From Moniliella sp. 'wahieum' (taxonomy: Eukaryota), in contig RSEE01000038.1 of assembly GCA_003971905.1 (NCBI GenBank), positions 248,001-312,000 of the forward strand: a DNA stretch of 64,000 bases, given 5' to 3'. Every line of letters starts with the position of its first letter. Position 1 is the stretch's first letter. The notes beneath the pieces are model-generated. The model saw nothing but the letters and a program-made list of their open reading frames with translations. It ran no database searches and had not been told where the DNA came from. The position numbers and the translations under genes were made by a program. This document shows positions 1 through 52,720 of this stretch, in pieces.

Positions 1-604
1 GCCTGAGCGCCTTTTAGGGCAGCGCTCAGCCAGCCACTCAGCTCTATTATAGGTAACGTTTTTGCCATATATCATGCACATCATGCATCATGGCAGTAGT
101 GGCGCCACTAACACCTCCCATAGCTTATCCGGTTCCCAAAACACGATATTATTTCCACCGATTCTCAGCCCGAGCAGACACGGCTCACACCACAGCAGCA
201 TCCCGGTCGCCAATTAGTAAAGACGCGCCGCAGTCAGCAAAACTGCGTCATTATAAAAGCGCTACCACACACTGTTGGCCCCAGCCGGGGAGGCCCTCCA
301 GCTCGACTATCTGTTCGATCACCTCTGCCCGCGCCGAGTTCTGTACCGTTGCCACCATTGAGTTGAGTCCACCTCATTTTTGGAGGGAAGTTAGTACTTA
401 GTGCCTGCAGCACGAGTGGGCCGTATGCAACTCATCATCTTTTGAGTGCTGCTTCCGAAGGGCCAACCCTAGTTGACGACTATAAATCTGACACGGGAAG
501 GACAGCTTACGTCAGTCGCCCTTTCCGCCCCTGCGGGGGGACAGCGACGCGATGTCGTTAAAATCGATGACCGTATCTCCCTTCCTCCATCTGTCCTGCA
601 CAGA

Positions 605-1456
605 ATGGCGTCACATCTACTCCGCCAGGCGGTTGCGTCGCCTGCCAGCCGCTTGCCGGTCCACATGCACATCCGTTTGGCCCACGGGTCGGCTCGGATG
701 CTGGCCGCCTACTCTTTCCCCTCCTCCACAGCCCCTGCTGCATCCTCCCCCAGCAGCCGAGCCAAATCCGCCGCCGTCACCACCGCCAGTCAGGCAGGTC
801 CTTCGGGTACCCAGCCACCTGTGTCCCACGCCCAAGGGCCTGAGTGGGTTGCCAATGACTTTTCCGGCATGTCTCAGCAACCCTTTCCGCGCGAAACGGC
901 CGATGTGCTGATGGCGCCACTCGATTCTAAGGATGTTGAGATCACGCCCGGTACGTTGCCCGCCGTGTCTTGTCCTACTCAGCTCTGCCTTGCCCAAAGC
1001 TAACCCTTTGCTGGTGGTGGAACTGCGTCCTGTGCCATACAGACGGCCTGCTGTACCTACCGGAGATCAAGTACCGCCGCATCCTCAACCGCGCTTTCGG
1101 TCCGGGTGGCTGGGGCTTGGCCCCGCGCGGTCAGAGCGTGGTGTCGGCCAAGGTGGTAAGTCGGGAATGGGCAATGCTCTGCCTCGGGCGTCTGGTTGCT
1201 GTGGCCCGTGGGGAACAGAATTACTTTGACCCGGATGGGATTCCTACCGCGGCAGAGGGAGCCAAGTCGAACGCGCTGATGCGCTGTTGCAAAGACTTGG
1301 GCATTGCGTCAGAACTGTGGGACCCACGCTTCATTCGTACCTTTAAGGGGGCCATGCGGTCCAGGTCTGGACCGAGAGCCGCGACGGTAAAAAGAACTAC
1401 TGTGGCGGCGTAAAGATAGCCCCCGTTTACTTACCCGTGGCGGGAACAGTGGTTGA
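605..1456 (+). CDS. MGM101: Mitochondrial genome maintenance protein Mgm101 (Rad52-like)
   Basis: ATG at 605 opens an Arg/Ser/Ala-rich presequence-like N-terminus. Intron 951-1042 (GTACGT..GCTAAC..CAG) joins VEITP to [30 protein letters not shown]...[24 protein letters not shown], the Mgm101 signature. The 3' end is frameshifted, so the stop is approximate. Confidence 0.93.
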
Positions 1457-2049
1457 GTTTGTACGCCATTACATGCCATTGACTACCACCGCTCTACTCG
1501 CCTTTTCTGGACAGCAGTTCGAACCACACTCTCCATGCGAAAGGCTATAGTGTCGCCAGATAGAGCAATGTAAGGAGGTTTGCGGAGCCTGCCGCCCGAC
1601 ACCGACTGAATGTCGACGGGTCGGCCTACTGGGGATGGACATTCTGTAGGGCTCAAGCCGCCTATTAGCCCTATGTTTTAACACGGATAAGAAACAATCT
1701 TGGTGACGTGGGGCACGCAGCACTGATGAAGCCAAGGAAGAGATGTACTAACATGGACCTGAGATTAACTGTCTTGATCCCACCAAAAGATGTTCGTAAT
1801 ACGCTCTCAATACATTTTGAGATGGGCAATCCTGCCGCAACTTATACACATCATCACACCAGGTCGGTTGGCTTCACTGGATCGGAAGCAGAAATCGCGT
1901 GAGATAAACGTAATGCAGGATTAAACGTTCCAGTGATGCATCCAAAAGAAAGGTCAATCTTGGTGGAATCTCGTTGCAGAGAGAGAGTGGAATACGCCCG
2001 TGGGGGAAGGGGTATAAACTCAGTGAAGGGGCCGCATCCTCAGATCGCC

Positions 2050-3787
2050 TCAGGCCACTACAAGTGCGGCTCGTCTGCCCAGGCCTTCCTTGGTAACCTG
2101 GTCGCCCTTCTCGTCTGCTGCGGCTTGTGGCACCCCGCGGGCAATGAGTTCTTCCCTCTGTTTGTCCGAAGCGTACATGGCAAACTCGTGAATCTTCTCC
2201 CCTGACGGCTTGACGCCAAGCTTGTGTACCACCGCATAGCAAAACGGCAAACTGGCTCCCAACAAGGCCATGTTGAGCCCTGCCACACCATCGAGTCGGA
2301 AACCCGTCGAGTTGAGCCCGTACGATACAGCCTGTCCTGCAGACTCGACACCGCGAATGATGGCAGTGAGCCGGATCAGATCAGCTGGGTTGTCCGACAA
2401 GCCTGAGGCAATCCAATAGTTCACTGTCGTTGGGTCAGTATTTGGTTGTTTCAGGCACAACGTGAAGAGGGGAAAACATACTCTCATACATGGTTGAAAA
2501 GATGATTTCCAACATGAGGTAGACACCGAACCCTTTGCCCCAGATCGAGCTGCCATCAACCCAATCGTAGTGCGGTGCATGGTTTTGTGGAACTGGTTCA
2601 TGACTACAATGGCGTAGATCCAGTATCCCATGGCGCACCCATACACCAAGGCAAAGCCAGCTTTGGCGCGGCGGTTGATTGTCCACTTGCTGTAATCGAG
2701 CAACACACCCAGCAGCAGGTTTGAAATCATGGATACAATCGCCCCATGAGGGATGCAAGCGCACGGCTGCGCACGGTAAAGTAGGTGGCGTTGAACGTGC
2801 CGCATACGACTCGGAAAAGGTTGATGTCCAAATCATGGGCAAGAGAAGGAGGACCTTGGGCTGAAGCAGCGTCTTGGCCATCAATTTATCTCTACCAAAG
2901 GATGCTGCGTCGTAGTGAGCTCGACGGGGGTCCCATCTTTGCGCTGTACTTTCTTTGGCATGGAGAGAAGGCATCCCGCCAAGGGTCCTGCTGCTGCAGG
3001 CAATGAAGACCTTGTATGTGGTGAAGGAGATGGCACCGCCACCAGACGATTGTGAGTTGTGGTTCAGGCCCAGTGAGATGAGCCCAGCGAGTACTTGGCC
3101 CGCTACACGGTAGCACAGCCAATACGATAAGTACCGACCTTGCTTCTTCCGTTCCGGGTAGCCCATCACCAACGCCCCCTCGGTCGCCCAAAACGTACCT
3201 GCCGTGATACCAAAGGGTGGCACCAAGGAGCACGAGCCAGTTCTTGTTATACTTGGAAAGAACGTAGAGACCAGCCGCATACGGAGCGTACCCGCATGTA
3301 CCAAAGATAAGAGCAAACTTGATGTTCGTAATCTTGACCAGCGCGGGCTGCAGGAAACAGGTGACGACCATCAAACAAAACCTATTAGGCCCATCAAGCA
3401 TTGAGGTTGGTCAGTTTCACAGGTGGGGGGGACATCACGTTTCACAAGAGGATGAGAGAACGTACGTGATGGAGTTGGATGCATTGACTGTACTAATATC
3501 CATTCCTCCTCCTGCACCGAGGAGGGAAAGGCCCGCCCCAGAGACCTGGGGCCAAAAAGAGCAAATGCCAAGAACGGTAATGTTCCAAAAGACCGAACGG
3601 TAAAAAAGTGACGCGGTATGTGCCGTCGGGCTTGAGACGGCTTAGCGCCCGATCGGGCTCAATGGCCCCCGGTGCCCGCAAGCGAGGCAACATCGGGCGA
3701 CGTGGTGGCCAACTTTTCGTCTGAATCGGGCTGCGGAGCCGTTGGCCCAGAGTCGGAGGGAGGGTTGGACCAAGGAAGCTTCACCAT
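2050..3787 (-). CDS. UNC-93-like (DUF895) MFS membrane transporter
   Basis: Segments such as IFGTCGYAPYAAGLY, GITAGTFWATEGALVMGYPERKKQGRYLSYW and RLTAIIRGVESAGQAVSYGLNS are typical of fungal UNC-93-like MFS proteins. Introns at 3382-3465 and 2424-2481. Several frameshifts. Confidence 0.85.
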
Positions 3788-4171
3788 GCCACAGTATGTG
3801 TCGTGACTGTTGTAGGTTGGAAGGGCAGAAGGTTGAGAAGAAGGGGAAGAAGGACAGAAGAAGATGGATGCGAAGGAAAAGGAGAGCACGCGGCGCCAGA
3901 GGTGGATCTTCCAGTTAAATATGCACTTGTGCTTTTGTATATGGCGACAGGAGAGGAATTCGTTCTGAAACAAGAAGCCCCTCGCTCCACGGTTTGCCCA
4001 TAGCCGACGGAGAGGAGAGTGTCTCTCAATGGGCATCCGATGGGCGCAAGGGTTGGTTATCTGTTTTGAGACTGTTCCTGGGGATCATATATCCTAGCTG
4101 CTCGTTTTGCATCAGTACTCTGTTGGCTGTGCGTGCTCGGCGGCGAAGATGGTGATGCCGGTGCGCCAGCC

Positions 4172-4202
4172 AAGCTTCAAGCTTCAGGCCTCAGGCCTCA
4201 GG
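4172..4202. repeat. 7-bp-period TCA+palindrome array (AGCT, AGCT, GGCC, GGCC)
   Basis: TCA at 4177, 4184, 4191 and 4198. Confidence 0.85.
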
Positions 4203-9338: not shown

Positions 9339-12300
9339 GGGGAGGAGGCGGCGGTAGCGGCGGAGGTGGTGGAGGGGGGGTTACCGGTTACCCCCAGCAA
9401 AGGCAAAGGCAGCCCACGACAGGCCCTCGCCCAGCGCCGCCCGGCAGACGCTCCCCAGCGCTTGGATGCCGCCGAAGCTGCAATACAATTAATACCCGCA
9501 GCAGCGCCCCCCCGCAGCACCCGGCGCGGCACGGCGCAGGTGTGGGTGGGCGCCCGTTTGTTTGTTTACCCCGGCTGCGGGTGGCCAGGTGGCTTGGCGC
9601 AGCACACACCGGCGCTGTGCCGGCGGCGCCTGGGCCTGCGGGGACGCTCGCGCACGCACTGGGCAGGCAGGCGACGCCGCAGGACCCTACACGCCCAGAT
9701 CCAGATGAGGCCCAGCAGCCGGCAGTACGTACCCGTTGGCCCACTCGCTTCCTGCATGCTGGGCGCTGGCTGGCACGCCCACCTTCAACGTCAACGTTCA
9801 ACTCAACGTTCAACGCAGCCTTCGGCGCCGAGGCAGCCGAGCGCTCCTGCTATCAAAGCATCAACATACCTGGCTTTCCATATACGCAGCAACCGGTGAG
9901 CATGCTGCACAGCCGGTGACCGGTGACTGCCTCGCCGAAATGTCCCTGGCAGTAGGCTGTGTGCATCTGCGCGTTTTAGGCGCCCAGTACGTACCCAAGG
10001 TTACCAGCTTATCTTTAAGCTTAGGTTTTTTGTGGGCAATCATGCATCCGATTAAAGCCGTTGAGGTTTGTCCAACGCCCAATAAAAATCGGATGAATAG
10101 TGGCCCAAAACAGCTGTCCCAGGGGGAAGAGCATAGCGGGCGAAGAAGTTGGAAGCTTGAAGGCGGGGTTATTAAACGTTAATCTTAATCATTTTCACCC
10201 CCTCGTCCCGCCAAACAGACCAAAGCTCGGCCTTGCTCGGGCAGACAGCAGCATTATATTGCTGCAGTTTGTGGGCAATAAGGCAAAACACATCCATCAG
10301 CACCACAGCAATTAAGCACAGGTCTGGAACAAGCCAAAAGGACTGGACAAGAAGAGCGAAAAAGACGTGCGATTTTATATGAGCGCAGGCCTGAGAGTGT
10401 GGTACTTCTACTTCTATATATGCTGTGCTTGTAATACGGATCGTCTGCAGTAGCTCCCATCCCGATCGCCCCATAGTACGCGTTGTGTACGCGTCTCTCT
10501 GACCAATAAAAGCTAATCCTGCGATCCGTTCGATTTTTCAACTCCCATTCGAACCATTTCGGTCCCCATCCCCCTTCCCCTCAATACTCAGTGGATACAG
10601 CAGCAGCCTCTCCTACGGCGCGCAGGTACCTCTCCAGATATGATTAATCAAAAGTAGTGCCCCCTCACCCCCTGCCCCCCGATGAGAGATGATGGCATGA
10701 TCGCAACTCCATCCCTGGCTGCCACCTGTCGTGCTCATCCGGCGTAGGAAAAGGTGGAACCCCCCCTCCTTATTGTGGATCGGGAGGGGATATATCGAAA
10801 CTCTTGGACGGCTAGCCGGAGCAAGTCAAGGACGGTATTATATCACCGGCTGACGGTGCCCTTGTATCTCCATCGGAATGCGCTGCGTAAAGTGCCTGCC
10901 GCTAGTTGCAGTGTTACAAGAGTCGTCTTATATTCGCAAGGCAAAGGGCACAGAGAATGCGAGGGTGAAGAAGACAGTGAAATACTAGTATGACCAATTC
11001 GTTTACCAGGGTTGGTCGGTAGGAAACAAAAGATGGTGGACAAAACCCACATGTAATATAGCCATGACAGTATAAGAGTCCCATATATCATACCTATTAG
11101 ACCACGCAGGTAATACCATAACCTAGCTCGGACAAGTAGCAACACAGATGAGGTATAGGAGCTCTGCAGAGAGTAGTTAGACCCAAAAATCCCGATCCCG
11201 CGATGGGTGGCGGCGGTGGTTATGCAGCATCTAAAGAGGTGTTACCTCTGTGGTAAGAGACCACACGCAGGAGGTGCCATGCCGGGAGCATTGCCAAAGA
11301 AGATGTTTGAGTACGGAAAAAAACGAGAGAACAGCGAGGTTGGTTGTTGGAGAGGGTTCTATATAGTCACTTACCAGTCTACCACTACGGCCGTCAGTAT
11401 AGCACACCCTCTCGTCCCCTACAGTCTGTTTGGAAAGTAATGGCTTGAGCCGGAGAGGGCCCTACCACCGCTGACGACACCATTAGCTTCATCCGACTAT
11501 GGGCGGGCATGAACAATTTTGGTTTTCGTGAGCGAGCCTGGAAGGTGCATCTTCGACAAAGCGACCGAGAATAGTGCAGCGCATCTGTGCCCAACATGTG
11601 CCCTGTCATTTTATAAAAACTCTTCTTATACTTCAGTCTGAACTACTACGTAGCAAAAACAGGCGGTCTACACAGAGTATATGTATAGTCAGTAGATTAA
11701 CAACGTTACACTTCACCAGCTTCCCCTCAATCCCGGACCGAACCAGCTTTTGAGGGCTGAGTCTCGTAACCGAGCTCGGGGACTAATATATATGACGGCT
11801 GGCATATGGCTAATGTCAGAGAGTAGCTCACGAGACGGGGCCCGCGTCCTGCTTCTCTGATACTAATGTCATTGTCGTATGGCCCTGTAGTACCCCAACT
11901 GTCCTTTCTCCTCTCCCCCCCTTTGGATCGGAGTCCCTACTAACCTGGGCTGCGGATTTTCCCTTCTCCGCACAAAGTTACACTCTCCTCCTTGTCTTCT
12001 CATCGGTCCCTTCGACTCTTAGCTGATCCTACATCAACTCTTTTGCCAAACATTCACGACAGTTATCGCGGGTCTATAGCTAGCGATGCTGGCCATGGGG
12101 AATGGAGATTGTATTCCAGAGAGGTAAGGAGAGCTAGACCTATGGGCCGTGCGAGGCTCCGGGCTCGGAGGCCAGTGGAAGCATATGTGGAAGGACCTGG
12201 ACCCACCCCCGGTGTACTGTGTGCATTGCATCGGGCCACGTGTCACATGTCACTGAAGGTCGATGGGCTCTAGACCACTGGTGGTCAACAACAGTTTTCT

Positions 12301-13614
12301 CTGACGCACCTCTGCTGTGGAGAGTGCAGTAGCCCCCTCATCTTTTGTGAGCAAAAAAGGCTATTTATACAGGCACTATAGTAACTAGTGACGCGAGTGA
12401 CGCTCGTATTAGGCAGCACCAATTAAGTTTAAGGAAATCCGGTCTCAGGCCGAGCTGTGGGATACTGAGTACTGAGGACACGTGGCCACATATTAGGATC
12501 GTAGGTACCTTTCGTTTGAGCCACTGCGCGGTCTTGTGCATCAGAAGATGCAGCAAAACCGTGTCTACCATACGAACCACTGAGATCTGAGACCAGAGGA
12601 AATGTTATGCGCCTCTCCGAAGCACATCGTTTTCGCCCGCCGCACCCCCCCCCCCCCCCGCGTGGCGCCACTGCCAAGCTGGAGGCTTCAATAAGTGAAA
12701 AGCTTCCACTTTATCCATGTGTCGATCACTTCATCAACAACATGGACGAAATGCGTCTATTGAGAGGTACGTCTGGCCTCCTCAGGCCTGAGCCTCAGGG
12801 TTAGGGTTAGGCCTCAGGGGCCTCAAGCTTCAAGCCGCCTCAGAGGGCCTCAGGCCTAGTCTTGTGGCAATATTCTGTAGGAGACATCCGTTTTTCATTC
12901 GCGTTTGAAAGAGAGACCCCTGGGATACGCGCTACGCGCAGGTGGGATCCTGAGGCTGAGGCTCAGGCTCAGGCCTGTGAGGGACTTGAACTGCTTCCAA
13001 CGACAGTAATAGTGATCGATGGGTCGATGCGTGACGCGCGTGATGATCGCCGCCGCACATCCGGAGGTGCATAGCAGCCCATCCTGTGAGTTTCTGCCAC
13101 CGTCCCAGATCTCACTGTGGCAGTGTTGAACGTTCGTTGAACGTTCATTAATGATTAATGATTGTTATTTAATGATTCGCAGGGAGGTGTGCGTCTGCGA
13201 TGGCCCGATTGAATACATCAAGGGGCCGGTGGCAAGGAGAGGGACGATGGCCGCTGGGCGCTGGCCGTTGAAAGAAAGTATCACCCGTCGTTGCGCTGAT
13301 CTCGGGTTGCCAGAGTGTCAGCTTCTCAAAGGCAGCCGCAATTTAAGTGAGAATCTCGTTCCACCCCAGGGGGTCATGACCCAACCCGCCACACTGCCCC
13401 CATGCCGCGCTGGCCGGCATCGCCCCATAGCAGCCAGCCGCGCATTTGATGCATGATAGACAGGGCCAGGTGGAGCAATTATTGCCTCTTCTGCCTTGGG
13501 GCGCCGACGAGCACTTTCTACCGCCTCTTCGCCTCTTGCATCTTCCTCTTCTTGGCCTTTGGGTCAAAACTCCGTCGCTTCCCTCCCTCCCACCACCCCC
13601 ACCACCCCACCGCC

Positions 13615-17149: not shown

Positions 17150-17687
17150 GGCGGGGAGGATGCGGGCCTTGCTGAACGCACCGAGCCTGCGACCGAGGCT
17201 GATGTTGCTCAGCGTAGTCCGAGCCCAAGAAGCCACCACGTGCAATTTGAACGTTCAGTCTCCAGGGTGTGTCACATGTGACATGAGGCATCACATGCAT
17301 TACAACACGACATATCACACTCAAGGGAGAGCTGTCCCAGATCTCATGCATCATCATGCATCATGCATCATGTCCCTTCCGCTCGATTTCAATTTCTCGT
17401 GTCACATGGACATTTCATATTGCACAAGAGGCCCATCGAGCATCGAGGCCAACCATCTCAAACTCCGACGCGAATCGCTGTACCGAGGGGGTCAAAATAC
17501 TACTCCGGCTTTTGCTCTTGCCGCGTAGAGTGACTCCCCATCCATCAGCCATCTCTGGCGTGGAGCGTGGACTAGCCAAACTGTACCGACCTGGTTGCGA
17601 TCAACTACCTACAGTTCGCTCGGTCCATTTCCTGCTGCTGTTTTGGGACGGCGTAGTTGCTGATGGCGTTACAATACACGACTTAAG

Positions 17688-18155
17688 CTATTCCCGTGCC
17701 TTCCGGCGTACACTGGCAGGCGTAAAAACAGCCGCCTCCTTCTGCAGGTCCCGTAGCACTGGTGCCGCCGAGGCAATCACCGCCCTTGCTGGCAGGAGCG
17801 CGGGTGGTTGCAGAGGCGGGAGGGGAGCGGGGGCTGGGGCTGGGGCGGTCGTAGCCGCAGAGGAGGACTCGTTGCCACTCCAATAGGATGGGGGCTCGTC
17901 CTTTTCGGTCCAGCCTTCAATCCTAGCCGAAGGGGGTGCAGGTCCCGGCGGAGCGGAATGGAGCGCAAGTCGAGCTTGGGTAAAGGCCTCGGTGCTGGGC
18001 GGGCGCTGAGGTGGAAGGGAGCGGGTTGCTGCAGGTCCTGCCATTCGCCGCCGCCAGAGGTGGTCAGAGGTTAGAGACGGAAGCACAAATTAAGGAAACG
18101 CATACATACGTGGGTCGTACTCGTACGCCGCCGCGTTGGCCTCCTTGCTGGCCAT
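17688..18155 (-). CDS. Short Pro-rich protein with a WBP11-like C-terminal motif
   Basis: MASKEANAAAYEYDP plus intron 18038-18109 (GTATGT..CTAAC..CAG) splices in frame to an ORF ending SAAPVLRDLQKEAAVFTPASVRRK. This resembles the C-terminal motif of fungal WW-domain-binding protein 11. Confidence 0.6.
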
Positions 18156-18260
18156 GCTTGCCGGCAAGGCGCTCGGTGCGGGGAGGAGGGGTACGGCGGT
18201 TGTGGATGGATGGAAGAAGTGTGGAGAGATGGCAGCTGCAATGGCAGGCATTAGCCGGCC

Positions 18261-18291
18261 TGAATATTGAATGTTGAACGTTGAACATTGA
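18261..18291. repeat. 7-bp-period TGA array (ATAT, ATGT, ACGT, ACAT)
   Basis: TGA at 18261, 18268, 18275, 18282 and 18289. Confidence 0.85.
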
Positions 18292-18609
18292 AATAGCCCT
18301 GCGCTCTATTTCTGGCCGTCTGGCCGTAATTTCCCACTGAGACCTAACCGGTCTGAGATCTCGGGATGTGAGCCTCTCAAGTGTAAGTGTGTGTTAGCAT
18401 GTACTAGCCTGACTTGTCACTGTGACAAGCTGACCAGCTGCATGGACAGCTGAGTTCGCGGCAATCGCGATCGAGTAGAGGTCCTTCCTTTCCTCCCGCC
18501 ACCTCACTTTCCTCTCCCATGGCTCTCCACTCGATAGCGGGCGCAAAAAGTTGTCTGCTGCACCCCGTACCCCCAAAAGCGTGGCGGCGACCATGGGGTG
18601 CAGGTCGCA

Positions 18610-20978: not shown

Positions 20979-22106
20979 AAGTGTTACACGGATTACAGTT
21001 CGGTCGTATTACATGCCGTTATAGTCGTCAACATGAAGAAGGAAGATCTCGAAAGAAATGCACATGTTGCTGCATTCATAGTAGAAGTTTATGAATGGAG
21101 GGGAAAGTGAGACGAAATACAGCAGTGTGATTCTTTTTCCGCGAAAGGAGGCAATGGGGAGGAGGAGGAGGATGAAGAAGGGAAAGGGAAAAAAGGGGAA
21201 GAGGAGACGACATGTCATACCATACTATCGGCCTATCTACTGAGGATGGTGGGAAATAATGCGGCATTATGAATGAGGATGAAGATCCTTTCAGTGTACA
21301 GCAATAGAATGTGACCCACTTGGCCACCTTAATTTCGTAGACCACAGCCATTTTCTTTTCAAGCGGAAGGGGCGGGCGTCGAGCAGCTGGTTTCCTCCTT
21401 GAGAGGGAAAAGGCGGAGAGACAAGGGATGTATGTCCCAACAGATGTGACAGGTTGTTGGACCCGTGGTCCCGTACTTAGGCCAAGGTGCCTCATCACCC
21501 TTCACCCCTGATTTGTCCTCCCAAGCCTCCACGTGATACTCAGGCTTGTTTGAAACCCCTGTCTCTAGGTTGGCACAAGGCTTAGACCCGAACCACACCA
21601 CCATCGCGATTGCATTGCTCTACATCTCCAGAGGTTCTTCACCCAATCCCTTGGGTTCCTCCGGTCTTACACGGGTCAAACGTGACCGTACTGACCTTCA
21701 GCGTATATATCTTTCGTCTTTACTGTTCGATAGCATCCCCTCTCTTCGTGTGCATCTGGACCACCGCACCATCCATCCTCCATTGAGAATATGAGACACA
21801 TGTCGCCGCAGAATATACATACGTGTGTTGTGCACGTTTTCATATCGATTACATTGCTTGCTGCCGGCTTGAGCGCTTGAGCGCTCAGGCTGAGCGCCAC
21901 TGAGAGGGCTGAGCCTCAGCTCTGGGGCTCTGGCAGCTCTCGCCTACACAATAAATCGCATTTGCGTCTCTGCGAGCCGGTCTACTCTCAAAAGTTTTTT
22001 CACCCGGTTGTGGCTCTCTCAGTGTGTTAAACTGCATGAAGCAGGCTGAAGCTTGGGGCTTGTGGAGGTTGTGGAGGTTGGACGCTGGAGCGTTTATTAT
22101 GGCAGG

Positions 22107-22158
22107 TGACCGGTGAAGCTTGAAGCTTGAAGCTTGAAGCTTGGAGCTTGGTACCTGA
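22107..22158. repeat. 7-bp-period TGA array (CCGG then AGCT x5)
   Basis: TGA or TGG every 7 nt from 22107 to 22156. Confidence 0.9.
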
Positions 22159-23350
22159 AAAACGTTGCTGAGATGTCGACGCTAAAAGAGTCAATTAGGT
22201 ATCGGCTATTATATATGCATCTCAGGGACTATCTTACGGCAAACAAGACTGTTGAATGTATGATGTGGAACAAGGCAGACAGAGTGTGACATGTGACTAC
22301 GCCAGGAAAGACATCATCGGTGATCGATAAGGCCCAAGCCCCCTGCCCCACCCCCCTAAGGCGTAACCCGTAAGACCTAAGGAAAGGGACAAATCAGAGA
22401 AACAGCGACGAGAACGGTCATGACACGGAGCGAAGACCTGGTGGGTCAGTCTGGAGGGCGTCCGGTCGCTCCGTGCGGCATTGATGGTTACGGTCACCGA
22501 CGGTCATCGGTCATATCGAAGTCTATAGTCAGCACGGCGGAGGACGATGGAGTAACTAGTAAGGCGAATGACTCTTGTGCATGACCCTCCGACCCCTAGT
22601 TCCTCAGGCCTGCGACATCTGAGATGAGCAGAGATCCTCGAAGTCGAGAGGGAGTGCGCACAGCGCGCGAGTGTGGAGCCTATTACGTATGCGAATTAAG
22701 CGAGCGTCACCGGCTCACCGACTCACCGAACAACCTGAAGTCTGTGCGGGGGAATCTGACAGCACTATCTCCAAGCCCAGGCTTGCTGTGGCTGGCGATA
22801 ATTGATAAGGCTTGGCGCTGGCGTGCGCTTGCCGGACGTGTTTGAGTACGTACGTACTGTGTTCCTTGGTATACTTTAAGCGGGCTTGCCAAGACGCACG
22901 TCTCAACTACATCGATCATGCATCAGGTCGATCAGGGCTCCAGCGCGCTCCAGCCCCAGGAGGCCCCAGGGCTTCAGGTTCCTCAGCGCCTCAGCGTCCA
23001 GCCTCAGGGCATCGTTGTGCCGAGTGCGTCCTCGTGCGCGGCGGGGCAGACGGCGGAAATGGACGTCCGGATTTGCCGAACGGCGTTTGCACCGCGTGAC
23101 AAAATTTTTATGCCGGCACCGGGCCAGTGCATAACCCGCGGCCTCATGTATCGGCGCACTATCAGCCAGGCACCGATCCAACGGAGATTGAACGTTTGAA
23201 CGTTGACATTGAACATTGAAGATTGATTACGATTATCGCCTTCGTATCACCTCACACTCGCCTGTGGGGAGCGCCGGAGCGGAGCACCTTCCGTTACCCC
23301 TACCTTCTCCATCACCCATCACCCTCCATCACCCTCATCCCCCCATCAGC

Positions 23351-29200: not shown

Positions 29201-30046
29201 CCGCACCGTTTCCACTGGCAAAAGGGGGTGGCCAGTCGTCTCACGCCAGCACACTTCGCCGCCCGATAAGTATTCCATCACTTTTTTCAGTAGTGGTATT
29301 GTTGAACGAAAAGGAAGATGTTACGTTGCAACAACGGTCAGTACTTCTTCAATTGAAACCCACCCTAGGAAGGGGACACGTACCCATGAAGATTTTCTTG
29401 CTCTGGGGATCGTCCATCACTTCGAGTAGACGGACGATGAATTGGCTGGAACACTTGCGAAGAATAGCTAGTTCGCGAAGGACTTTATCGTCCGTCGCGC
29501 GAGGAGCAGGGGCAGGGGTGGGCAGAGCAGGCAGCGGAGAGGGGCCCCGGGCGTACGGCTGACGGGGAGACGACGTAGGACGTGGTCGCTGCCAAGACGG
29601 CGGGGGGAGGAACGGTTGACAATCTTGATGGCAGCGGTTGTGCCGGTGGTGGTGTCGCGGGCCATGCGGACGCGACCATGGACGCCCCGCCCAGTTCGGA
29701 GAGAAGGAGGTACTGGTTGACCATCCGATGGCCCGATGTCGGATGGGACCCCATGGCAATCGACGAGGTCTCCCGCACGCGGGCCGGGGGAGGGGAGGGG
29801 GCGCGCTCAGGCGGAGCGACATGGGCCGATTGAGGCGTACGGAGGAGATGCTGCGGGAGGAGGTGGACGGGCAGAAGGAGGGGAATCAAATGCGGCTTGG
29901 GGCCAGGCCCACTGCGTGGGGCAGACCGTGCACGGTCTCTTGCACGGTGTGTGGGTTGGCGTTGAGCAGTCTAGCTGACCAGTGAAAAAGATCAAGACGT
30001 GCGAGCTGAGCGGCAGAGCGCTGCTGCGCTGATCGCAGCATGCCAT
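26205..30046 (-). CDS. Ser/Thr protein kinase, CaMKK/Sak1-Tos3-Ssp1 (Snf1-activating) family
   Basis: VNQYLLLSELG, AAIKIVNR, RELAILRKC, LLEVMDDPQSKKIFM, then intron 29281-29383, then VMEYLSGG, HRDLKPANLL, VKISDFGVSH, TAGTPAFLAPE, DIWALGVTLYC. Long S/P-rich C-terminus. Start and stop are uncertain. Confidence 0.9.
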
Positions 30047-30491
30047 GCATATGCCACAGACATCACCGCTGGGCCTGACAAAGCCGAGCCGCAGAACACA
30101 AAAGCGCCAGGGCACTCCTGTGCCTGGGCAAGGGGAGCCGGGGCAGCAGCCTGGACGCTATAGTACGTTGGATGTTGGACGGGAGGCAGCCGACGCATGA
30201 TGCAGAATGCATGATGCAAGGTGCTGCCTCAGACTCAGATGTGAGTACTGAGTCTCAGACCGCAGCCCCCCCCCCGCAGGCCGCAGAGCACAGTGGGCGG
30301 GGCGGGCGCCAGGGCTGCTGCGCCAGTCGGCACAAGCGCCATGCAGCGTGCCGCCTGCAGGCCACCCAGCGTCCAACGCACCCCATGCCCCACACTGCCG
30401 GCACGCGCCCTCGGCCGACGTTCACACCCTCCCACGCCCCTGGCCCGAGGCGCTGGCCTGAGCGCCTGAGTGCCTCAACTCCCCGACATGC

Positions 30492-30535
30492 TGACATGTC
30501 ACATGTCACTGTCACATGTCACCGGTCACCGGTCA
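30492..30535. repeat. 7-bp-period TCA array (CATG units then CCGG units)
   Basis: tgacatgtcacatgtcactgtcacatgtcaccggtcaccggtca, with one 1-nt slip. Confidence 0.88.
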
Positions 30536-30649
30536 CCGCCGCAGATCTCACCCCTGCCTGAAACCCCGCCAGGGCGCGGGTGGGTGCGCCACCACTTCCA
30601 AATTAGCGCCAGACCACACCGCCCTCCTCCAGTCCCGCCGAGAGCGACT

Positions 30650-30687
30650 TGAGGCCTGACGCCTGACGCCTGACGCGTGACGCGTGG
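30650..30687. repeat. 7-bp-period TGA array (GGCC, CGCC, CGCC, CGCG, CGCG)
   Basis: TGA at 30650, 30657, 30664, 30671 and 30678. Confidence 0.88.
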
Positions 30688-31191
30688 CGTATGCAATGAT
30701 CGAGACAGGCGACAGGCGACCCTTGACGATCGCGTGACCGTGCGCGTGACTAGTGACTACTGGGCAACCCCACCAGCAAAGCGTTGGCCTGCGCTAGCTC
30801 TGTGCCTCTGTTTACACGTTACCAATGTTTACCGGATAGACTAAGGCAACTAGGGTCCACACTGCTTACATATCGATCGCCCCCCCTTCGCTCGTTTCTT
30901 TTCAGCCGCGCAAGAATCCCCAGATCCCCCCCCATCGACCATCGACCATCCTTTTGACCAACCAACCCGTTTCCCTATCGCTGGGCTTACAAGCCCACAG
31001 CAATACCTCTTTTGGGCCTCTTCACATGTCACATGTCGCCCCCCCCTTATTCCTTTCCCACAACAAGCCAGCAAAACCAGGCTACTCCCTCAAGGGGGTT
31101 TGGTAAGTCCTAAAGTCGTAACTGAGTACTACGGCCCGCCCCTCAAGCTCCTTAAGCAAGGTGCCGCCACCGAGGACCATAATTTTCTTAG

Positions 31192-31215
31192 TAACTAGTA
31201 ACTAGTAACTAGTAG
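31192..31215. repeat. (TAACTAG)3 array
   Basis: TAA at 31192, 31199 and 31206 with CTAG cores. Confidence 0.85.
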
Positions 31216-31274
31216 TTCATCATGCAGCGTATGCATAACGAGAAGACCACCGGGCCTACGGCCCGGTCTGCTGT

Positions 31275-31356
31275 GTCGCCACCTTAGCCACCGTTCCCCC
31301 GTCGCCACCTTAGCCACGTTCCCCTGGCCCATCATCGCCACCGTAGCCACCGTTCC
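31275..31356. repeat. Three copies of a unit of about 24-26 bp (TCGCCACCTTAGCCACCGTTCC)
   Basis: Copies start at 31275, 31301 and 31334. Confidence 0.8.
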
Positions 31357-33789
31357 AAGCTGGAACCCATCCACGCTGGAAAACAATACCACCGATACGT
31401 GCTGGCTGGCGTGGCTGGCGGCGCCCCCGGTGGCTGCGCCACCGGTGGCTTACGCAATGCTGATGTAAAACAGTGGTGCACACCCCGTTCGGGATTCTAA
31501 TATAACATTGAGATGGTAAGGGGCAGCGGAGGTGCGGTCTGGTGTGGTGGTGTGGTGGCGGGCATGTTTTGTTTGGTGTCACATGGCAGGTCTAAGTCGA
31601 CCTGATGCCCTTACCAGTAGACCCTGAGGCTCAGGCTGGGGGGGGGTGACGCGGAAGCGCTGAGGGGAACCGGTGACCTGGGACACCTTTGCCTGTGGAT
31701 CATCGACAGTCATAGCCCCTGAGGCCTGAGGCCCCGATTACAGATCTGAGAGGGCCTAAGAATCCTGCCGGCCTGAGGTCTGCCTGAGGTGAGTGACTAG
31801 TATAGTGACTAATAGTGACTAGCCTGATGCTCAGGCCCAGGCCTGAGGCCTGACTAGCTGACTAGTGAGACCGGTGACCTGGCCTGGAAGCGCGCGCTCC
31901 CCGTGATCGCGTGACCGGTCCCGGTCCTGCCCTTAGAACTCCCATCCTTTTTGTCGGTTTGTCTGCAGCTGCAGACTAGCTAGCTGATATATATTTTTGG
32001 TAAAAGACTTCAAGCTTCACTACCTTACCGATCACATTTCCGAGTTAGTTGATGTCATTTTTTGTCTTTGTGTGTATACGGGTGTGGGTGGGGTTTTTTT
32101 TGGCAAAGCGCCTCGTTTCGCGAATATACTTGCGGTGTCATGCATGTCAGCCCGACTTGTTACGCTCTACGGTGGACCCCAGATGGTCCATTCAAGCGAA
32201 GGCCCGCCGGCTCCGCACATGCCCAGTAGAGCGTGCTCCGCAGGCCAACCAAGGGTGATGATGGTTGGTTAAATTAGGTACGGTGGCCCGAAGGGCCACA
32301 TATGCATCCGCGCGAGACAATAGTCGCCCCCCACCTAAGTCCAAGTCGGCTGGCCAAACTAGGCCACGGAGCTTCCAGTGTCTTTGCGACGACTGTCGCA
32401 TCTGTCCCCGTTTCTCCTTTTCCTTTCTCGGTCGCGCCTGCGGCGACCAACCCCTCTTTTGACGTGTCTTCCTTTCTACACACCTCTCTTGTATCCGTTT
32501 CCCTTTTGATCTTGCCTGTACCACTGGTTGATCGGGATCATTTCCCCGACCTTCCATTCTCTCATCATCTACCGTCTCCACGGTCACCCCCTCCCGCTAT
32601 ACTGTCCGACTACTCCTGTCCGTTTTCCAGCCAATTGATCCAGTACAGGCGGCCTCCTCTCCTCTTAGCTCCCGCCTCCTCTGCCGACCTCGTCCTCCAG
32701 CACTCCATCAGTCCAGGGCGCGAGCCCTCCTTCAGCCGCGTCTCGATTTCCAGTCTCTGTCCGGTCTCAGTTAAGGCAGTGTTTGACCGCCACTGCCTCC
32801 TTTCGTCCCTAAGTCCCGGAGGCTTCAGACACGTTACTACACACAGCCAAGCCGGTGCAGACGCAGCCTTGTCATAAAAGTGCAGCCGCCCTACCAAGAC
32901 CTCTCTTCGTCCCTATAGCTCCGCTCGAATCCACCAACTATAGCTCAAGCCCGAAACTACCGTGAGTCAACCTACCGTCTCCCAAGGGACGTACCCCCAA
33001 ACCCCAGGAGAGCCCCCTGGCGGGGCCCGCCCCGTAACATGGCTACTGCCCTCAAGGGCTGAACCTCGGATCGGACGAAGCTTGTGCGACTGAATCACCC
33101 AGAAGACTCGTGCGAAGACTGGTGCGATCAGCGCCGTGAAGGCAGGAAAGAGCTGGTGACTCAGGATCAGCACGTCCCTATAGGATAGTTGTCAAAACCA
33201 TTGTAGTTCTTGACCATCTCGATCATCAGATAACCCACCACTCTACCCATATCCCGCTGACCTTCCCTAGACCATCCCACCCTCCTGAGAATTTTTCAGA
33301 CTATAGCCTCGATCTTGGACCCTTATCAGGCGCTCAGGCATCCGTCCAAGTCACAGTAGAGACCTCCTCTGACGATCAGACCTCAGCGAGGCCTTCTTAT
33401 AGGCTGAGAGCTGAGGAACCCTGCTAAACCACTTTTACACTGCGCGGTATAGTATCATAGGCAGTTCATCGCGTGAATCCAAAACGTCCCTTCGGTAGGC
33501 CTTGTTCAGAGTCGATTAATCCGTCCTTAATCCAGGAGATCTGCAATCTTATTGGAGAGTTCTATTCGGAGATCAGCTTCTGGGTTACTTGATTCGAAGG
33601 CGCGGCAAGTGTGTGGGGCCCATTGATCCTGTTGAACCGTTTGAAACTGTAACGTTGGTGTCCACATGTAAGTGTTGATGGCGTCGTAGGAGAATGGAGA
33701 ATGTGGTTCTAGGGGAAGGTGCAAGAGGCTCTACATAAGCGGTATGGTCTAATGTGGCCTAAGAGAATACGAACAATGAGGTATAATCT

Positions 33790-44528: not shown

Positions 44529-47586
<3,058 letters not shown>

Positions 47587-49704
47587 CGAGGGATTGAGCA
47601 ACTAAGCAAACTGAGGATGCGTATGTGAAGCGTATGGAGCGCCCATCCTCGTTTTCGCTCCGCTCAGGTTTCGTTTCCTCTCTCGGATCTCAGGGGTGAG
47701 GGAGGGGAGAACCGACCAACCAGTATAGGAACTGGCCCTTTCCTTTGAGTGGTTGGGTAGTTGGGATACTCGCTTCCCTTCTCACGCGCAGCCTGGCTAC
47801 CCTGTGATTCCCCCGTGATCCCCTCGTCATCTCGTTTTGGTGCCCCATGCATATTCCCCATCTATCTGCTCTGTACTCTTTTTTATTCTTCTCTGGCCAC
47901 GTTGGGCCGAGGTGTGCGCCGCGAGGTCGACCTGACTCTTGCGCTTCTTCCTGCGCAACCTGCGGGTCACATGTCATACAAGGGCAATGTATACAGTGGT
48001 GTCTCTTCAGATCCCTTAGACCAGAAGTCTGAAGCTTCATCTGAAGCTTGAAGCTTGAGCCCACTGGACCTTGCGCTCACCCTTGCTCCGTGTTTGTCTA
48101 TAGGGGAGTCGCGCTAGTGTTGGCACTGTGATGAGCGCAGTGAGTCCCCCGGTGATCCGTGTTCTGATACGATACCTATTCCATCGGTTGTATTACACCG
48201 TGGGTTTTTTGTGCTGGTGTGTGCCGGCCCTCCTCTTATGTTATCAACCAATTTGTTTTCTTCCGACCAAACCTAATCAACACCCTAATCGTAGCTGGAC
48301 ATCCCCTTTATTCTTGTCACCCTTACGAATCTACGACTCTCGCGTCGTCGCTTACACTCTCCAAAAAAAGGTGCGGATATAGTACGCTATTCTTTCTGCT
48401 ATATTCTTACAGGCATGTGTCGTCCTGGAGTCATTATAGGACTGAGCGCTGTGAGTCCGCGTGTATTTTCTCCTGGCTTCCCTCTCGGGAACACAGTCTC
48501 CCTTGTGTGGTGACTGTACTCCCAAGTTTTTGCGTGTCCATCCTTCTCCGTTTTACCCTATATAATACCGTGAGTTGTTTCCCTTTTGAACCCTGCCTAC
48601 TACAAGCAATGGTTCGTGGGTCTCCTCCACGTTCCATTGTTGTCTTCACCTTCCATACTTCAATCCATTGGCGGCGCCATCTTCTTCAATCTATACGGTA
48701 CAAACCGAATTTCTTCTCTTTGTTACCTCCCCTGCGCTTCCTTTATTCTTCGCCTCTCTCTTCATGTTTTCCCATCTCTTTTAGCTGCAGCTTTTTCCAG
48801 CTGCTAAGTGTTCGGCTTTTCCCGTATTCAATCCGTGGAGTTTTCAGTCCTTACTTTTTTTCTGCGTCTCAGCTTCAATGTTCCCGGTTCCCGCTCTAGA
48901 CTTCCAGGTTTGGGCAACCTTGTCCTCGGCTGCCACTTTTCCCATGGCCGAGTGGGAACAAAGGCTTCAGACACGGTTCTTACTGCCTCTACGTAGCCTT
49001 GCCGGACAATATGCAGCCCCTTCGGCCATACACTGTTGAGAAACATTTCCTTGTCCTTAGCCCTGCTCGGATTCAGCAGCAAACCCAAGCACGAACCTAC
49101 CGTGAGTCGACCACCCTTGCGGCCTTCAATGTAGGGATGCATCCCCCCAAAACTCCGGGCGGGCCTCAGGCTGCGGTCTGGGTGTGACATGCGACACCTG
49201 ACACAACGCCCACACTAGAGGGATTTCCCTGCGCGCCTCTTCAACCACTCGGTTCCGTCAAGATCTGAAGCCAGATATATACCGTCCGTTCGTCATGATG
49301 CTTGACGGGTCTACCCATCGTGGCATATGACCCTGTTGTAGTTCTTCATTGATGCCTTTGTTGTGTGTGTCTCATCATGTGTTGTTTACAGTATTGTTTA
49401 CAGTATGACTGCTTTTCTCCTTTTCCTCTGGGGTAGAAGGCACCACATTCCTTGCTGCCTGACTGAATCATCAGCCTCCAAAGCAATCCCCTTCCTCCAC
49501 AGTGGCTTTGTTAGTTGCGGCTGTGACACTTTGACCTCAAGGCGGCGAGCAAAAGATGTTTGGGGTCTGGAAAGAATGAAGTACTGAGTCTCAGTGGAGA
49601 TGGTTCAACGTTCACCGTTCACCCCTCAGATGTCTACCCCGTTCATTTTCGTATCCACACGCGCTACCTCAGGTGTGGGAACGGACGGTGTGGGTACCAG
49701 AGGG

Positions 49705-49855
49705 TCTTGATCTCTGCTGGCGACCCCCGGCCTCGTTCCGTAAAGGGCGGATTTGGCGCCAACAACCACAAAGGCCGGATGAGCAGGCCGGTTTGGGCAC
49801 AGCGTGTCTTTGTCCCACAGCCTTAGCTCTGTCAACGATGTTGGTTACAACATAT
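49705..49855 (+). other. Dispersed diverged sequence, copy B (homologous to 33790-33935 on -)
   Basis: Same collinear blocks as copy A. Confidence 0.75.
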
Positions 49856-50738
49856 AAGCATAAATTTTGGCGTTTGAGAAGAGTCATTTCCTTTCGGGCT
49901 CGTTTGTCATGGTTTGGCTGACCTCACTCCCATTTCCAATTTCTTCGTCCCGACCGTCTCACCGGTCACCCCTTCCCAGTTCTTCTCCGCTTCGCAACAT
50001 GCCATCTGCTATTGTTCTTTCCCAGGAACGAGGAACGATTCTTATACTGTCCCTTGGCCGAGTCCCCACTCTGGTCTACCTCCTCGCCTTTTCTCCGACT
50101 GTGACACACCCGATCGCACACATTGCACGGTTCTGTAATAGTTGCCACTGCATTATGTAGGAACTAGGCAAAAATAGGTTGTGTCATATGTCGTTCGTGC
50201 AGGTGGATACTACGCCCAACATGGATAGAGCCCGGGGCAAAGGGACAGGGAAAAGAACGATGAGATCGATGAGATCTGAGATCTGAGAGATGAGAGACGA
50301 GCGGTTCAGAAAAATTGGAAATGGGAGTGAAACTCACCAACTTATGAGATCTATGACAGATTGGATGGCCCGCGGTGGTTTGAGGGACTGAATGGTCCCA
50401 GCAAGAATCATTAATCAGCGCGCTGAGCTGAGGTTCCACGCTCAGCGACTCCCAGGTGCTTAAGTTAGTGAGCCTCTGGCATGGCCCTCGCAGCTAATCA
50501 CCGGGCAAATATTGTCACTTCTCTTTGCTGATCCTGTCTCCTTCTCTCTGCCGGCTACCAGTGTATCCTTTGTTTTCTTGGTGCTTGGCACTTGGTTCTC
50601 ACGTGTATCGCCTGACCCTTACCACTAGTACTCCTCACACTAGTCACTGTCAATGTCACTGCGCAAAAGGTGAAAGCTCAGGCTGTCGAGCGTTGTCGAT
50701 CTCAATGCATAATCGTCGTGGTACCTGGATGAGATCGA

Positions 50739-50797
50739 TGATCGATGAAGTTTGAAGGTTGAAGCTTGAAGGTTGAAGCTTGAAGCTTGAAGGTTGA
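50739..50797. repeat. Longest 7-bp-period TGA array (9 TGA in register)
   Basis: Cores TCGA, AGTT, AGGT, AGCT, AGGT, AGCT, AGCT, AGGT. Confidence 0.9.
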
Positions 50798-51772
50798 GAG
50801 GCCAGAAGATTATTGAAGCTAATAGAAGCTTGAAGATCCTGCGGGGTATCGAGCTCGTCCAGTCATACAGGGTTTGCTCTTCGGCATCGTTGCAGCAAAC
50901 TGTTTCGGCTTGTCGGCTTTTAGCGCTTAGCGCTTATACCCACACCTGGCTATACAGGCCCGTTTCTCCTGCGTCTGGCCCCACAGAATGTATCAAGTTC
51001 TCTACAAGGAATCGATACTTTTATCGAATTCATCTGTCTTCCGGCATAGGTCTCGGAGTGCCACCGGGATGCACTCGGTTCCGTCTGCCGATCTTTCAGC
51101 TTCTCTCTCGACTCTTTGGCCACCGAGCACCTGGGGGCACCCAGCGCCAGTCCCCTCAAGCCTGAACCAAGCTCAGGTCGATCTCGATCAGGACACTACA
51201 TATTCAAGCTTCATCTGTGCCTCTCTGTGCTTCAGGCTGCTTCAAGCTTCAAGCTTCAGGGCCTAGAATCCTTTGTGACAAATGTCGGCATCTCTATGTT
51301 CCTTGTTCCTCTTGAAGCTTGAACGTCAAACACCCTTCACAAGCTTCACACCACCACGAAATGGATCACCGGCACAGGAACAGCACAAGAGGTGGCCAGT
51401 ACTAGTACCATCCGTGTAGCATCCTTACTTTTGTGACTCTTGTCGGCACATCCTACTCGCGCGTGATGACGATGACATGCGATGCATGATGATGAATATT
51501 TAGAACGTTTCGTGCACCCCAACTTCTACGGAAAACAACCTGTTAAATCATGGCTTCCCGAAGGCTCAACGTACGTTCAACACGTTCAACAAACGTTCAA
51601 CGACTCAGAAGTGCACCAGTCACAGGGTCACCGCGGTCATACTCAGGGCGAAGCAGTGGAGAAGGTCACTACTGTGGTGTGGGAGGGTGGGGTGAAACCG
51701 GAGAAAGGCGATGAAATTGATGAAAGACCGAAGATCCATGATGAATCAGCGATCAGATCTCAGAATACACGA

Positions 51773-52018
51773 TGATTAATGATTAATGATTGATGATTGA
51801 TGATTTCGATGATCGACCAATATGATCTTGCCAAGAACGGGTGGATGGGCAGCATATGGTTGCGGAGGCCGTGGTTACCGGTTACCGGTTACCAAGCGAC
51901 GTGTGTAAAATTAGGTTGGAAAAGCTTGAACCCATTGAAGAGCTTGAAGGTGGTGACGGTGACCGGTGACCGGTGACTAAGTGACCCCAGTGAGCGCTGA
52001 GCGCTCGCTGAGTACTCA
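51773..52018. repeat. Cluster of heptamer arrays: (TGATTAA)2, (GGTTACC)3, (TGACCGG)2, (TGAGCGC)2, TGAGTACTCA
   Basis: Read directly at 51773, 51873, 51960, 51991 and 52009. Confidence 0.88.
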
Positions 52019-52637
52019 ACTGAGTGTACTGAGTATTGAATTGCCCTTTGGAGGGACCACTGTGATCGAATCAACTGATCGTTGAGCGGGGTTTGGACGT
52101 CGGTGGGAGTAGGCTGGGCGCAGGGAGAGGGCGTAGGTTGGGCGCCCACTATCCAAAATGCAGCGCCGTATACGGTTGGGGCAGCTTCGAAGCCCATGCA
52201 GGCCAGCGGGGCCAATGGGCCCAAGTATTGGCCACATTACACGTATAGATCGGTACATGTTCCACGTCAAACGCAAGGAACCAGCCAATGTCGGAAGGTT
52301 ACGCTTGCGAAGCCACGCGAAAGTGGGGAGAAGTGGGTGCAAGCCACACTAAGGAACAAACCGCGGCCCGGCCAGACTCAGTACTCATCGGAGATGGGAA
52401 GATTGCCGCCGCGTGCTGCTGTTCTGGCTGCACTGAGCATACTGGCACTGGTACACTGAGCGAGCCACAGCGGCTGAGGCTGAGGCGCTGAGGCCTGAGG
52501 CTGCGTGTGAGTGCCCAGATTGAGCACAGCGTCGTGCACTGCGCTGCACTCCCGATGTCCACCAGTATCACCCATCTCATAACGCAGATCCCATGCATCG
52601 TGTTTCATATGTCCGCGCCACCGCCATGCGCCGTGCT

Positions 52638-52675
52638 TCAAGCTTGACGCATGAGACATGACGCGTGACGCGTGA
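52638..52675. repeat. 7-bp-period array with mixed cores (AGCT, CGCA, GACA, CGCG, CGCG)
   Basis: TCA or TGA at 52638, 52645, 52652, 52659, 52666 and 52673. Confidence 0.85.
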
Positions 52676-52690
52676 CGGCCGCAGATCCAG

Positions 52691-52720
52691 GTGCAACTGG
52701 GTGCAACTGGGTGCAACTGG
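52691..52720. repeat. (GTGCAACTGG)3 perfect tandem repeat
   Basis: Three exact 10-bp copies. Confidence 0.9.

Follow-up and report, generated by a model that had tools for sequence, protein, structure and literature searches.

What process fills the intergenic DNA of the fungus Moniliella sp. 'wahieum' with short arrays in which TGA or TCA alternates, at a period of 7 bp, with almost any self-complementary tetramer? We examined the arrays in a window of 64,000 nt (assembly GCA_003971905.1, contig RSEE01000038.1, positions 248,001 to 312,000 of the forward strand; coordinates below count from the first base of the window, which is also the scale of all counts unless stated). The original prediction held that the tetramer, or core, is free while symmetry and spacing are conserved, and that this reflects either a generative, hairpin-type process or readout of TGA-N4-TGA by a general promoter factor. 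Our analysis supports the generative branch and supersedes the idea of a free core: the dinucleotide flanking a unit predicts its core, and symmetry and 7-bp spacing are therefore by-products of an insertion rule. We conclude with high confidence that the units originate generatively, through flank-templated 7-bp insertion, and consider it fairly probable that they were left behind by a cut-and-paste DNA transposon on its excision.

Palindromic heptamers are enriched in the window

All 30 positions at which units had been reported carry them, at the given coordinate or within a few bases of it. With the unit defined as T[GC]A, a palindromic tetramer core and a second T[GC]A, the core was palindromic in 89 of the 152 T[GC]A-N4-T[GC]A matches, compared with 3.7 ± 1.9 (maximum 9) in 100 block-wise dinucleotide shuffles of the window. 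Non-palindromic cores occurred at chance level (63 matches versus 56.9 ± 7.6). Fourteen of the 16 possible palindromic cores were present. The remaining two, AATT and TATA, which would derive from AA and TA, were missing from these matches (0 versus a rough expectation of 7.5); their reported absence held for the core count, but AATT does occur once, in a longer junction at 51710. A wider count that also admitted TAA and TTA gave 105 palindromic hits grouped in 84 arrays. The repeats are thus real, but "short arrays" describes a minority, as 68 of the 84 hold one core only. Among same-base palindromic hits, TGA/TCA outnumbered TAA/TTA by 76 to 11.

Period and centre were also evident in simpler counts. 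T-N-A (TNA) pairs with the same middle base peaked at distances of 7, 14 and 21 bp (147, 80 and 70 versus approximately 38, 38 and 36). Odd-centred heptamers were enriched around TNA only, with 128 versus 60.5 for TGA (2.1-fold), 97 versus 60.5 for TCA (1.6-fold) and a 1.6-fold excess for TTA; the other 13 centres ranged from 0.8- to 1.25-fold. Similarly, A-N4-T hexamers numbered 337 against 176.7 expected, and hexamers with other outer bases reached 0.87- to 0.94-fold. One-mismatch copies of the units, not all of them independent of the arrays, were abundant in non-coding DNA (123 versus 8.8), which shows that the process began long ago or has run for a long time.

The flanking dinucleotide sets the core

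If a site is written as ab-TNA-xy, a core templated by its right flank reads xyy'x' and a core templated by its left flank b'a'ab. We applied this rule to the 53 single-unit hits whose two TNA triplets share a middle base, using 20,000 flank permutations as the null. At least one flank matched in 41 of the 53 (21 right only, 16 left only, 4 both), compared with a permutation mean of 7.6 and a maximum of 20; the other 12 fitted neither flank. Single units with different middle bases matched a flank in 8 of 15 cases. The match ended after two bases, with the third base agreeing in 12 of 37. The corresponding 12-mer, TNAxy-y'x'-TNAxy, was found 96 times on both strands compared with 0.4 in 8 shuffles, and TNA opened 96 of the 129 strings of this 5+2 type. 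In 32 collapsed sites there was no bias between left and right forms (15 versus 17) or between TGA and TCA (14 versus 15), and nothing clear was seen in the target beyond TNA except G or C beside the T on the non-templating side (27/32) and C at one further position (18/32).

Arrays with several cores follow the same rule. In all four of the arrays made up purely of palindromic mixed cores, the left and the right core each came from the flank on their own side:

4177..4200: mixed-core array with AGCT, GGCC, GGCC; left flank CT predicts the first core, right flank GG the rest
13138..13161: mixed-core array with ACGT, TTAA, TTAA, predicted by flanks GT and TT; one middle-base change
22107..22137: mixed-core array with CCGG, then AGCT three times, predicted by flanks GG and AG
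30512..30535: mixed-core array with CATG, then CCGG twice, predicted by flanks TG and CC

Among the 30 chains of at least two cores of any kind, many of the shorter ones hold cores that cannot be derived from the outer flanks; some of these chains arose by chance and others have aged. Longer chains combine flank-type cores with plain copies and variants:

30650..30680: chain with GGCC, CGCC, CGCC, CGCG, i.e., one left-type core, two plain 7-bp copies and one right-type core; would be compatible with one site flanked by CC and CG, provided that one flank base later changed
50739..50797: the longest chain, 8 cores, opening with TCGA and continuing with AGCT and the variants AGTT and AGGT (aged or slipped copies)
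51773..51803: chain with TTAA, TTAA, TTGA, TTGA, i.e., two right-type cores and two plain 7-bp copies
52638..52675: chain with left-type AGCT first, right-type CGCG twice last and two unexplained cores between

The flank rule bears directly on two other origins. Template switching during replication, in which a nascent TNAxy end copies the opposite strand (y'x' plus T) and re-anneals five bases back through T/TNA, would produce both mirror forms and the 5+2 string with no element involved, and a longer back-copy would give the 15 single units with different middle bases. However, any X-N-X' centre would offer the same microhomology, yet only TGA, TCA and TTA are enriched. Moreover, the common 7-bp edge of the 7+1, 7+2, 7+4 and 7+5 junctions described below is left unexplained, and the 12-mer occurs 6 times in 834 kb of 80 other fungal loci versus 96 times in 64 kb here. 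We therefore regard template switching as unlikely.

Somewhat less likely still is that the units are selected promoter elements, read by a protein as TGA-N4-TGA or acting as small hairpins or cruciforms. Such selection would account for the clustering of hits upstream of genes and for their absence from the relic blocks and from 53401-64000 (see below), and seven example arrays can form hairpins whose stems are 5 bp long (-0.5 to -8.7 kcal/mol). Nevertheless, the promoter-factor readout that had been proposed predicts an excess of non-palindromic cores and no flank rule, neither of which holds. Selection for symmetry would also favour matches to both flanks, seen in 4 of 53 single units, and not matches to one flank, seen in 37. 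A promoter role may have arisen through later co-option of the units.

A 7-bp duplication with the palindrome centred between bases

Junctions were modelled as a prefix of a left hairpin joined to a suffix of a right hairpin and fitted for each duplication width. A 7-bp duplication fitted 85 four-base junctions, compared with 0 for 3 bp and 3 for 5 bp; the 9- and 11-bp models fitted 49 and 59, as long arrays satisfy these too. Longer junctions were also found under the 7-bp model (6 of 5 nt versus 0.1 and 6 of 6 nt versus 0.0 in shuffles). An asymmetric 5-bp duplication was rejected, as it would be incompatible with a symmetric target that has T at position 1 and A at position 3. For the widths of Mutator-like elements, no strings of 8+2 or 9+2 ending in TNAxy were present, compared with 7 strings of 7+2. 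Whole 7-mers flank 1, 2, 4 or 5 inverted bases at 12 places in the window, with 7+1 junctions at four, 7+2 at six (four with non-palindromic 7-mers), and 7+4 and 7+5 once each. They include:

12387..12402, plus strand: 7+2 junction in which 2 inverted bases separate two copies of the non-palindromic 7-mer AGTGACG
51710..51725, plus strand: 7+2 junction, 7-mer GATGAAA twice with TT between; the sole case containing AATT
51335..51350, minus strand: 7+2 junction, non-palindromic 7-mer
13125..13142, plus strand: 7+4 junction
48028..48046, plus strand: 7+5 junction
50259..50293: mixed locus in which one 7+2 junction is joined by two 5+2 junctions and one plain 7-bp copy, all in succession

At isolated TNAxy repeats, the filler was y'x' in 36 of 48. 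Among isolated sites that discriminate between a palindrome centred between bases and the three forms expected from hAT transposons, the between-base form fitted 34 versus 0 of 46, 31 versus 1 of 42 and 33 versus 0 of 42, on which grounds the hAT geometry was rejected. Inverted filler was likewise favoured over plain duplication (30 versus 6 of 42 discriminating sites). The palindrome centre therefore lies between bases, as it does for RAG and Transib. A scan for odd centres also exceeded the shuffles (k=7, 35 versus 13.4; k=8, 60 versus 10.8), an excess that we ascribe to the margins of the 7-bp arrays; at k=7, every TNA-led case listed had a palindromic core.

The same data address slippage. 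Like slippage microsatellites, the arrays are short, non-coding 7-bp tandem repeats with slipped and aged copies, and the plain 7-bp copies and repeated variant cores in the long chains at 30650, 50739 and 51773 indicate that slippage acts on existing arrays. As an origin, in which microsatellites are born from palindromic heptamers and later decay, it is very improbable and largely refuted by flank order and inverted filler. Slippage copies 7 bases, yet exactly 5 were repeated at 14 of 36 isolated sites; it would give exact filler, found at only the 6 sites above; and it cannot convert CCGG to AGCT in step with the far flank. Unlike such microsatellites, the units are born with a flank-set inverted filler, grow by repeated insertion and, in all their diversity, obey one rule.

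Two other kinds of repeat were observed. TNA repeats with a 6-bp period (12797-12811, 12950-12974, 47528-47542 and 52472-52490; 16 three-base junctions versus 2.6 expected) may have arisen by hexamer slippage of the ordinary kind, or the same process may have made them as repair products of shorter length. A perfect 10-bp tandem repeat of 3.2 copies, not centred on TNA, lies at 52690-52721, directly after the last array.

A model of excision and repair

The rule could be explained by a transposon that inserts at a symmetric ab-TNA-xy target, mostly TGA or TCA, and duplicates those 7 bp. Upon excision, each flank would be sealed as a hairpin with its tip between bases at the edge of the duplication, in the geometry of RAG and Transib. 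A host nuclease would open the hairpins mainly 2 nt past the tip, leaving self-complementary 4-nt 3' overhangs, xyy'x' on the left and b'a'ab on the right. End joining would then retain one overhang and drop the other, giving TNA-xyy'x'-TNA or TNA-b'a'ab-TNA, precisely the pair of forms seen in the window, with a net gain of 7 bp. Both copies would again read nnTNAnn and offer fresh targets for further hits, so that arrays would run from left-flank cores to right-flank cores. Slippage may contribute some of the plain 7-bp copies. The flank rule with its two mirror forms, the width of 7 bp, the centre between bases, the core order, the aged copies and the exclusion from coding-like DNA are seen in the window itself; the element, the hairpin, the opening position and the joining step are what we infer. 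Opening at +2 is drawn by analogy from the human enzyme Artemis, which in vitro opens hairpins mainly at this position to yield 4-nt 3' overhangs (PMC2175297).

Two general features of flank-hairpin footprints are found in the window, namely a target duplication (the 5-bp repeat at 7-bp spacing, 96 versus 0.4) and inverted flank-end bases at the junction. Footprints of Tc1/mariner and PIF/Harbinger elements consist of a 3-bp TNA duplication plus leftover element ends. Leftover ends of this type were rejected as the source of the cores: such cores should ignore the flanks, and here they follow the flank and take 14 different forms.

Like the P nucleotides of V(D)J joints and the footprints of RAG1, Transib and the CMCT group (EnSpm/CACTA, Mirage, Chapaev, Transib, Plavaka, ESTA), the scars have inverted bases centred between bases at the flank edge. 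That RAG-type palindromes have this centre follows from the general mechanism together with hairpin opening as described for Artemis (PMC2175297). In the window, two inverted bases dominate and one to five are seen, as +2 opening to 4-nt overhangs would predict (PMC2175297). However, most coding joints lose their P nucleotides (PMC2175297), whereas the scars keep one overhang whole far more often, and in contrast to V(D)J joints they are germline, dense, stacked into arrays and targeted to nnTNAnn. CNEST, which duplicates TA, differs in its 2-bp duplication (PMC12810828).

Ac/Ds elements of the hAT superfamily share flank hairpins, short palindromic insertions and, in a fungus, a few dominant footprints with the proposed scars, but their palindromes are centred on the complement of the element-adjacent base (PMC5873905). 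The rust-fungal hAT7 group has a 7-bp duplication (PMC12730594); hAT duplications are generally 8 bp, so the scars fit the length of hAT7 only. For Muta1, flank hairpins were reported as 43+43 nt, compatible at gel resolution with a tip between bases, and its duplications are long (8-9 bp). Mutator-like elements differ, however, in duplicating 8-10 bp, and more than 90% of Muta1 excisions in yeast were precise (PMC5499845). As the scar rule matches neither the duplication length of CMCT elements nor the centre of hAT elements, we assign it to no known family; the process works like RAG/Transib coding-end repair with a differing duplication length. A literature search limited to titles and abstract openings, with few subscription journals covered, returned no description of a flank-templated 7-bp pattern.

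Units avoid coding-like DNA and cluster near genes

Ten stretches of the window were used to train a codon model, which called 18,321 bp coding-like; much of this DNA belongs to the training set, and intron-rich genes are under-called. Coding-like DNA contained 0 of the 105 palindromic hits, compared with 9 of 112 non-palindromic hits and 527 of 2461 TNA sites, and one of the one-mismatch copies compared with 123 elsewhere. Hit density was approximately 2.3 per kb of non-coding-like DNA (105 in 45.7 kb). The reported absence of units from coding regions is thus borne out under this model, on which it depends, since several hits lie inside long stop-free frames that have neither a Pfam match nor a coding signal (9015-9916, 35244-36815 and 39708-40421). 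The exclusion from coding-like DNA and the near-absence of mismatched copies there, together with aged copies and block-wise gaps, are unlike a technical process. An artefact of amplification, basecalling or assembly is accordingly extremely unlikely, even though a repetitive gene at 54-57 kb changes frame in a way that may hint at an error-prone assembly.

Hits were concentrated in the following clusters:

12201..13550: 11 hits at 8.1 per kb, upstream of the squalene epoxidase gene
17201..18470: cluster, 7 hits
21801..23430: cluster, 10 hits
29901..32030: 16 hits at 7.5 per kb, upstream of a kinase gene on the minus strand
49551..53400: 30 hits at 7.8 per kb, the largest cluster

Gaps read as upstream of genes held 4-8 hits per kb, where three of the gene labels used are sub-threshold Pfam hits and block boundaries were chosen after seeing the data. 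Arrays had been reported in nearly every large gap. Many gaps do hold clusters, but 32031-35100 and 48101-49550 hold none; with 10201-12200, these low-GC (guanine plus cytosine) blocks have 1 hit at 313 TNA sites, and 53401-64000 is nearly devoid of hits. The two empty blocks are probably relics of one repeat family. They share pieces at 32820-33014/48962-49165 (61% identity) and, inverted, at 33791-33926/49854-49713 (65%), and are therefore old repeats that would be expected to tolerate insertions; a third common piece, at 32552-32595/49934-49977 (78%), overlaps the left arm of a candidate element discussed below. Translated comparison of the two relic blocks gave no protein-level match.

Evidence against an excised element

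Several observations weigh against excision of a transposon with RAG-like geometry. None of the 221 TNA sites in relic blocks 32031-35100 and 48101-49550 carries a hit, albeit within boundaries set post hoc, and the excision model therefore needs gene-proximal targeting or another cause. Open-chromatin targeting is known for other transposons; this, an element-free enzyme or later selection could explain the gap. No transposase family was found among 433 stop-free frames compared with Pfam (batches of 41, 148, 150 and 94, the last being 94 of 132 listed short frames), although badly decayed remnants could escape such a search. None of the 105 inverted repeats of the window has a TNA-centred duplication of at least 6/7, no element in the window exceeds a 9/12 terminal match with an exact 7-mer, and the pre-insertion state is not represented by any empty paralogous site in the window.

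The footprints themselves add further points. The 12 of 53 single units that fit neither flank have been mentioned. Four-nucleotide junction fits at other centres exceed the shuffles (9, 17 and 17 versus 0.3, 2.8 and 2.6); we tentatively took these for shifted readings of the same arrays plus ordinary microsatellites. Isolated sites seldom show a plain 7-bp duplication (3 of 77, two of the three being TTAA arrays read out of register). Three-plus-one mixed cores with a crossover within the four bases are rare as well (1 and 0 unambiguous cases), so that one overhang would usually be kept whole. This outcome is more uniform than that of Ds excision in Candida, with 28 footprint types in 128 excisions (PMC5873905), and the 7-bp duplication lies outside the 2-5 bp of CMCT elements (PMC12730594).

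The best inverted repeat that is not made of arrays is a weak candidate for the element:

49924..50330: candidate 407-bp non-autonomous element with 19-bp perfect inverted arms (37 bp at 81%)

Its flanking 7-mers (49917-49923 and 50332-50338) are both nnTNAnn and 5/7 identical, the right one being one base off; the chance of this for a random pair of positions is 0.0019, in a pair noticed after the fact. The arms are better preserved than the flanks and start with TCAC, not CA, unless the edge is moved by one base; CMCT elements are marked by CA..TG termini and by a DDE transposase with C(2)C and H(3-4)H motifs. The outward likeness of the flanks may also be read as a decayed longer inverted repeat. 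Each arm has its own array just inside, with different flanks and cores.

Alternatively, a domesticated or abortive RAG/CMCT-like enzyme could cut with a 7-nt stagger at nnTNAnn in open chromatin, with the ends filled, hairpinned and repaired in the absence of any element. Its sequence rule would be identical to that of excision. It would suit a density of 2.3 hits per kb without a transposase in 64 kb, the strong gene-proximal bias with empty repeat relics, and the very uniform outcome. On the other hand, no such enzyme was found, we found no precedent for fill-in followed by hairpinning of both ends without an element, and the candidate at 49924-50330 speaks, weakly, for an element. This makes an element-free origin possible but rather doubtful, and we continue to favour excision scars.

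Host, gene content and outgroup controls

Pfam hits to squalene epoxidase (13450-15516), two kinases, Rad54, eIF2A, MGM101, ArfGAP, RNase PH and zuotin identify the window as fungal. The squalene epoxidase is encoded in one frame and shares 64-70% identity with four relatives (P0001-P0004), compared with approximately 45-58% for named Ustilaginomycotina. In a quick tree of 38 of 121 sequences, supported by the Shimodaira-Hasegawa-like approximate likelihood ratio test (SH-aLRT) only, the window and these four relatives formed their own branch (100) within a 31-row Ustilaginomycotina group (98). This branch is long, includes none of the named proteins among the hits, and stands apart from Malassezia and from smut and Exobasidiomycete rows.

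The outgroup comprised 80 fungal loci from metagenomes (834 kb), in which the best match to the squalene epoxidase of the window had 49% identity and no close relative was present. Palindromic cores made up 129 of 2083 (6.2%) in these loci, which is the chance share. Of 27 viral-collection loci carrying an AGCT array, 25 had AGCT only and two had a second core; none showed the multi-core grammar. On heptamers of the ATTCACG/ATTCGTG type, attributed to Ustilago maydis in the original prediction, the literature search listed no paper; judged from their letters alone, they may be readable as plain nnTSAnn duplications.

Other features of the window are as follows. An Ala/Ser/Gly-rich repeat protein with 7-9 copies of approximately 215-bp units occupies 54146-57260, has no Pfam match in the scanned frames and shows a coding-like signal that switches frame several times (introns or assembly errors); repeated 10-mers found in the window were traced to this repeat. 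Long minus-strand frames of 752 and 309 amino acids at 5919-9268 belong to no Pfam family, and the first has a strong coding signal. Short coding-like stretches at 16500-17200 (minus strand) have no Pfam hit; judged by motif, their translation appears to resemble an Hsc20/Jac1-type J-protein. Long C runs occur at 12645, 35849, 39395 and 45013 (15-21 bp, plus one broken 41-bp run), several of them near gene starts. An Rfam scan of the window gave 0 matches.

Implications

If the scar model is true, it describes a way of forming microsatellites without slippage and without an inserted repeat sequence, in which scars recreate their own target. The chemistry of an unseen transposase would be legible from the genome, including a 7-bp stagger, an nnTNAnn target and a hairpin tip between bases, and would indicate a CMCT-like group beyond the known 2-5 bp range of duplications. 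The genome would further document, in thousands of natural cases, the opening and joining of hairpins by a fungus, with opening at +2 and one overhang kept. A broader picture, which we offer tentatively and consider improbable as a whole, is that a RAG/EnSpm-related enzyme not previously described, with a 7-bp stagger and nnTNAnn specificity, acts in a deep-branching lineage of Ustilaginomycotina. It would have left tens of thousands of self-renewing, gene-proximal scars, largely or wholly without a lasting element, in a germline parallel to V(D)J coding-joint formation. The promoter microsatellites built in this way may in part have been co-opted. For motif finding, such arrays need not be binding sites. 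With 4-8 scars per kb upstream of genes, the process would be a large source of promoter change.

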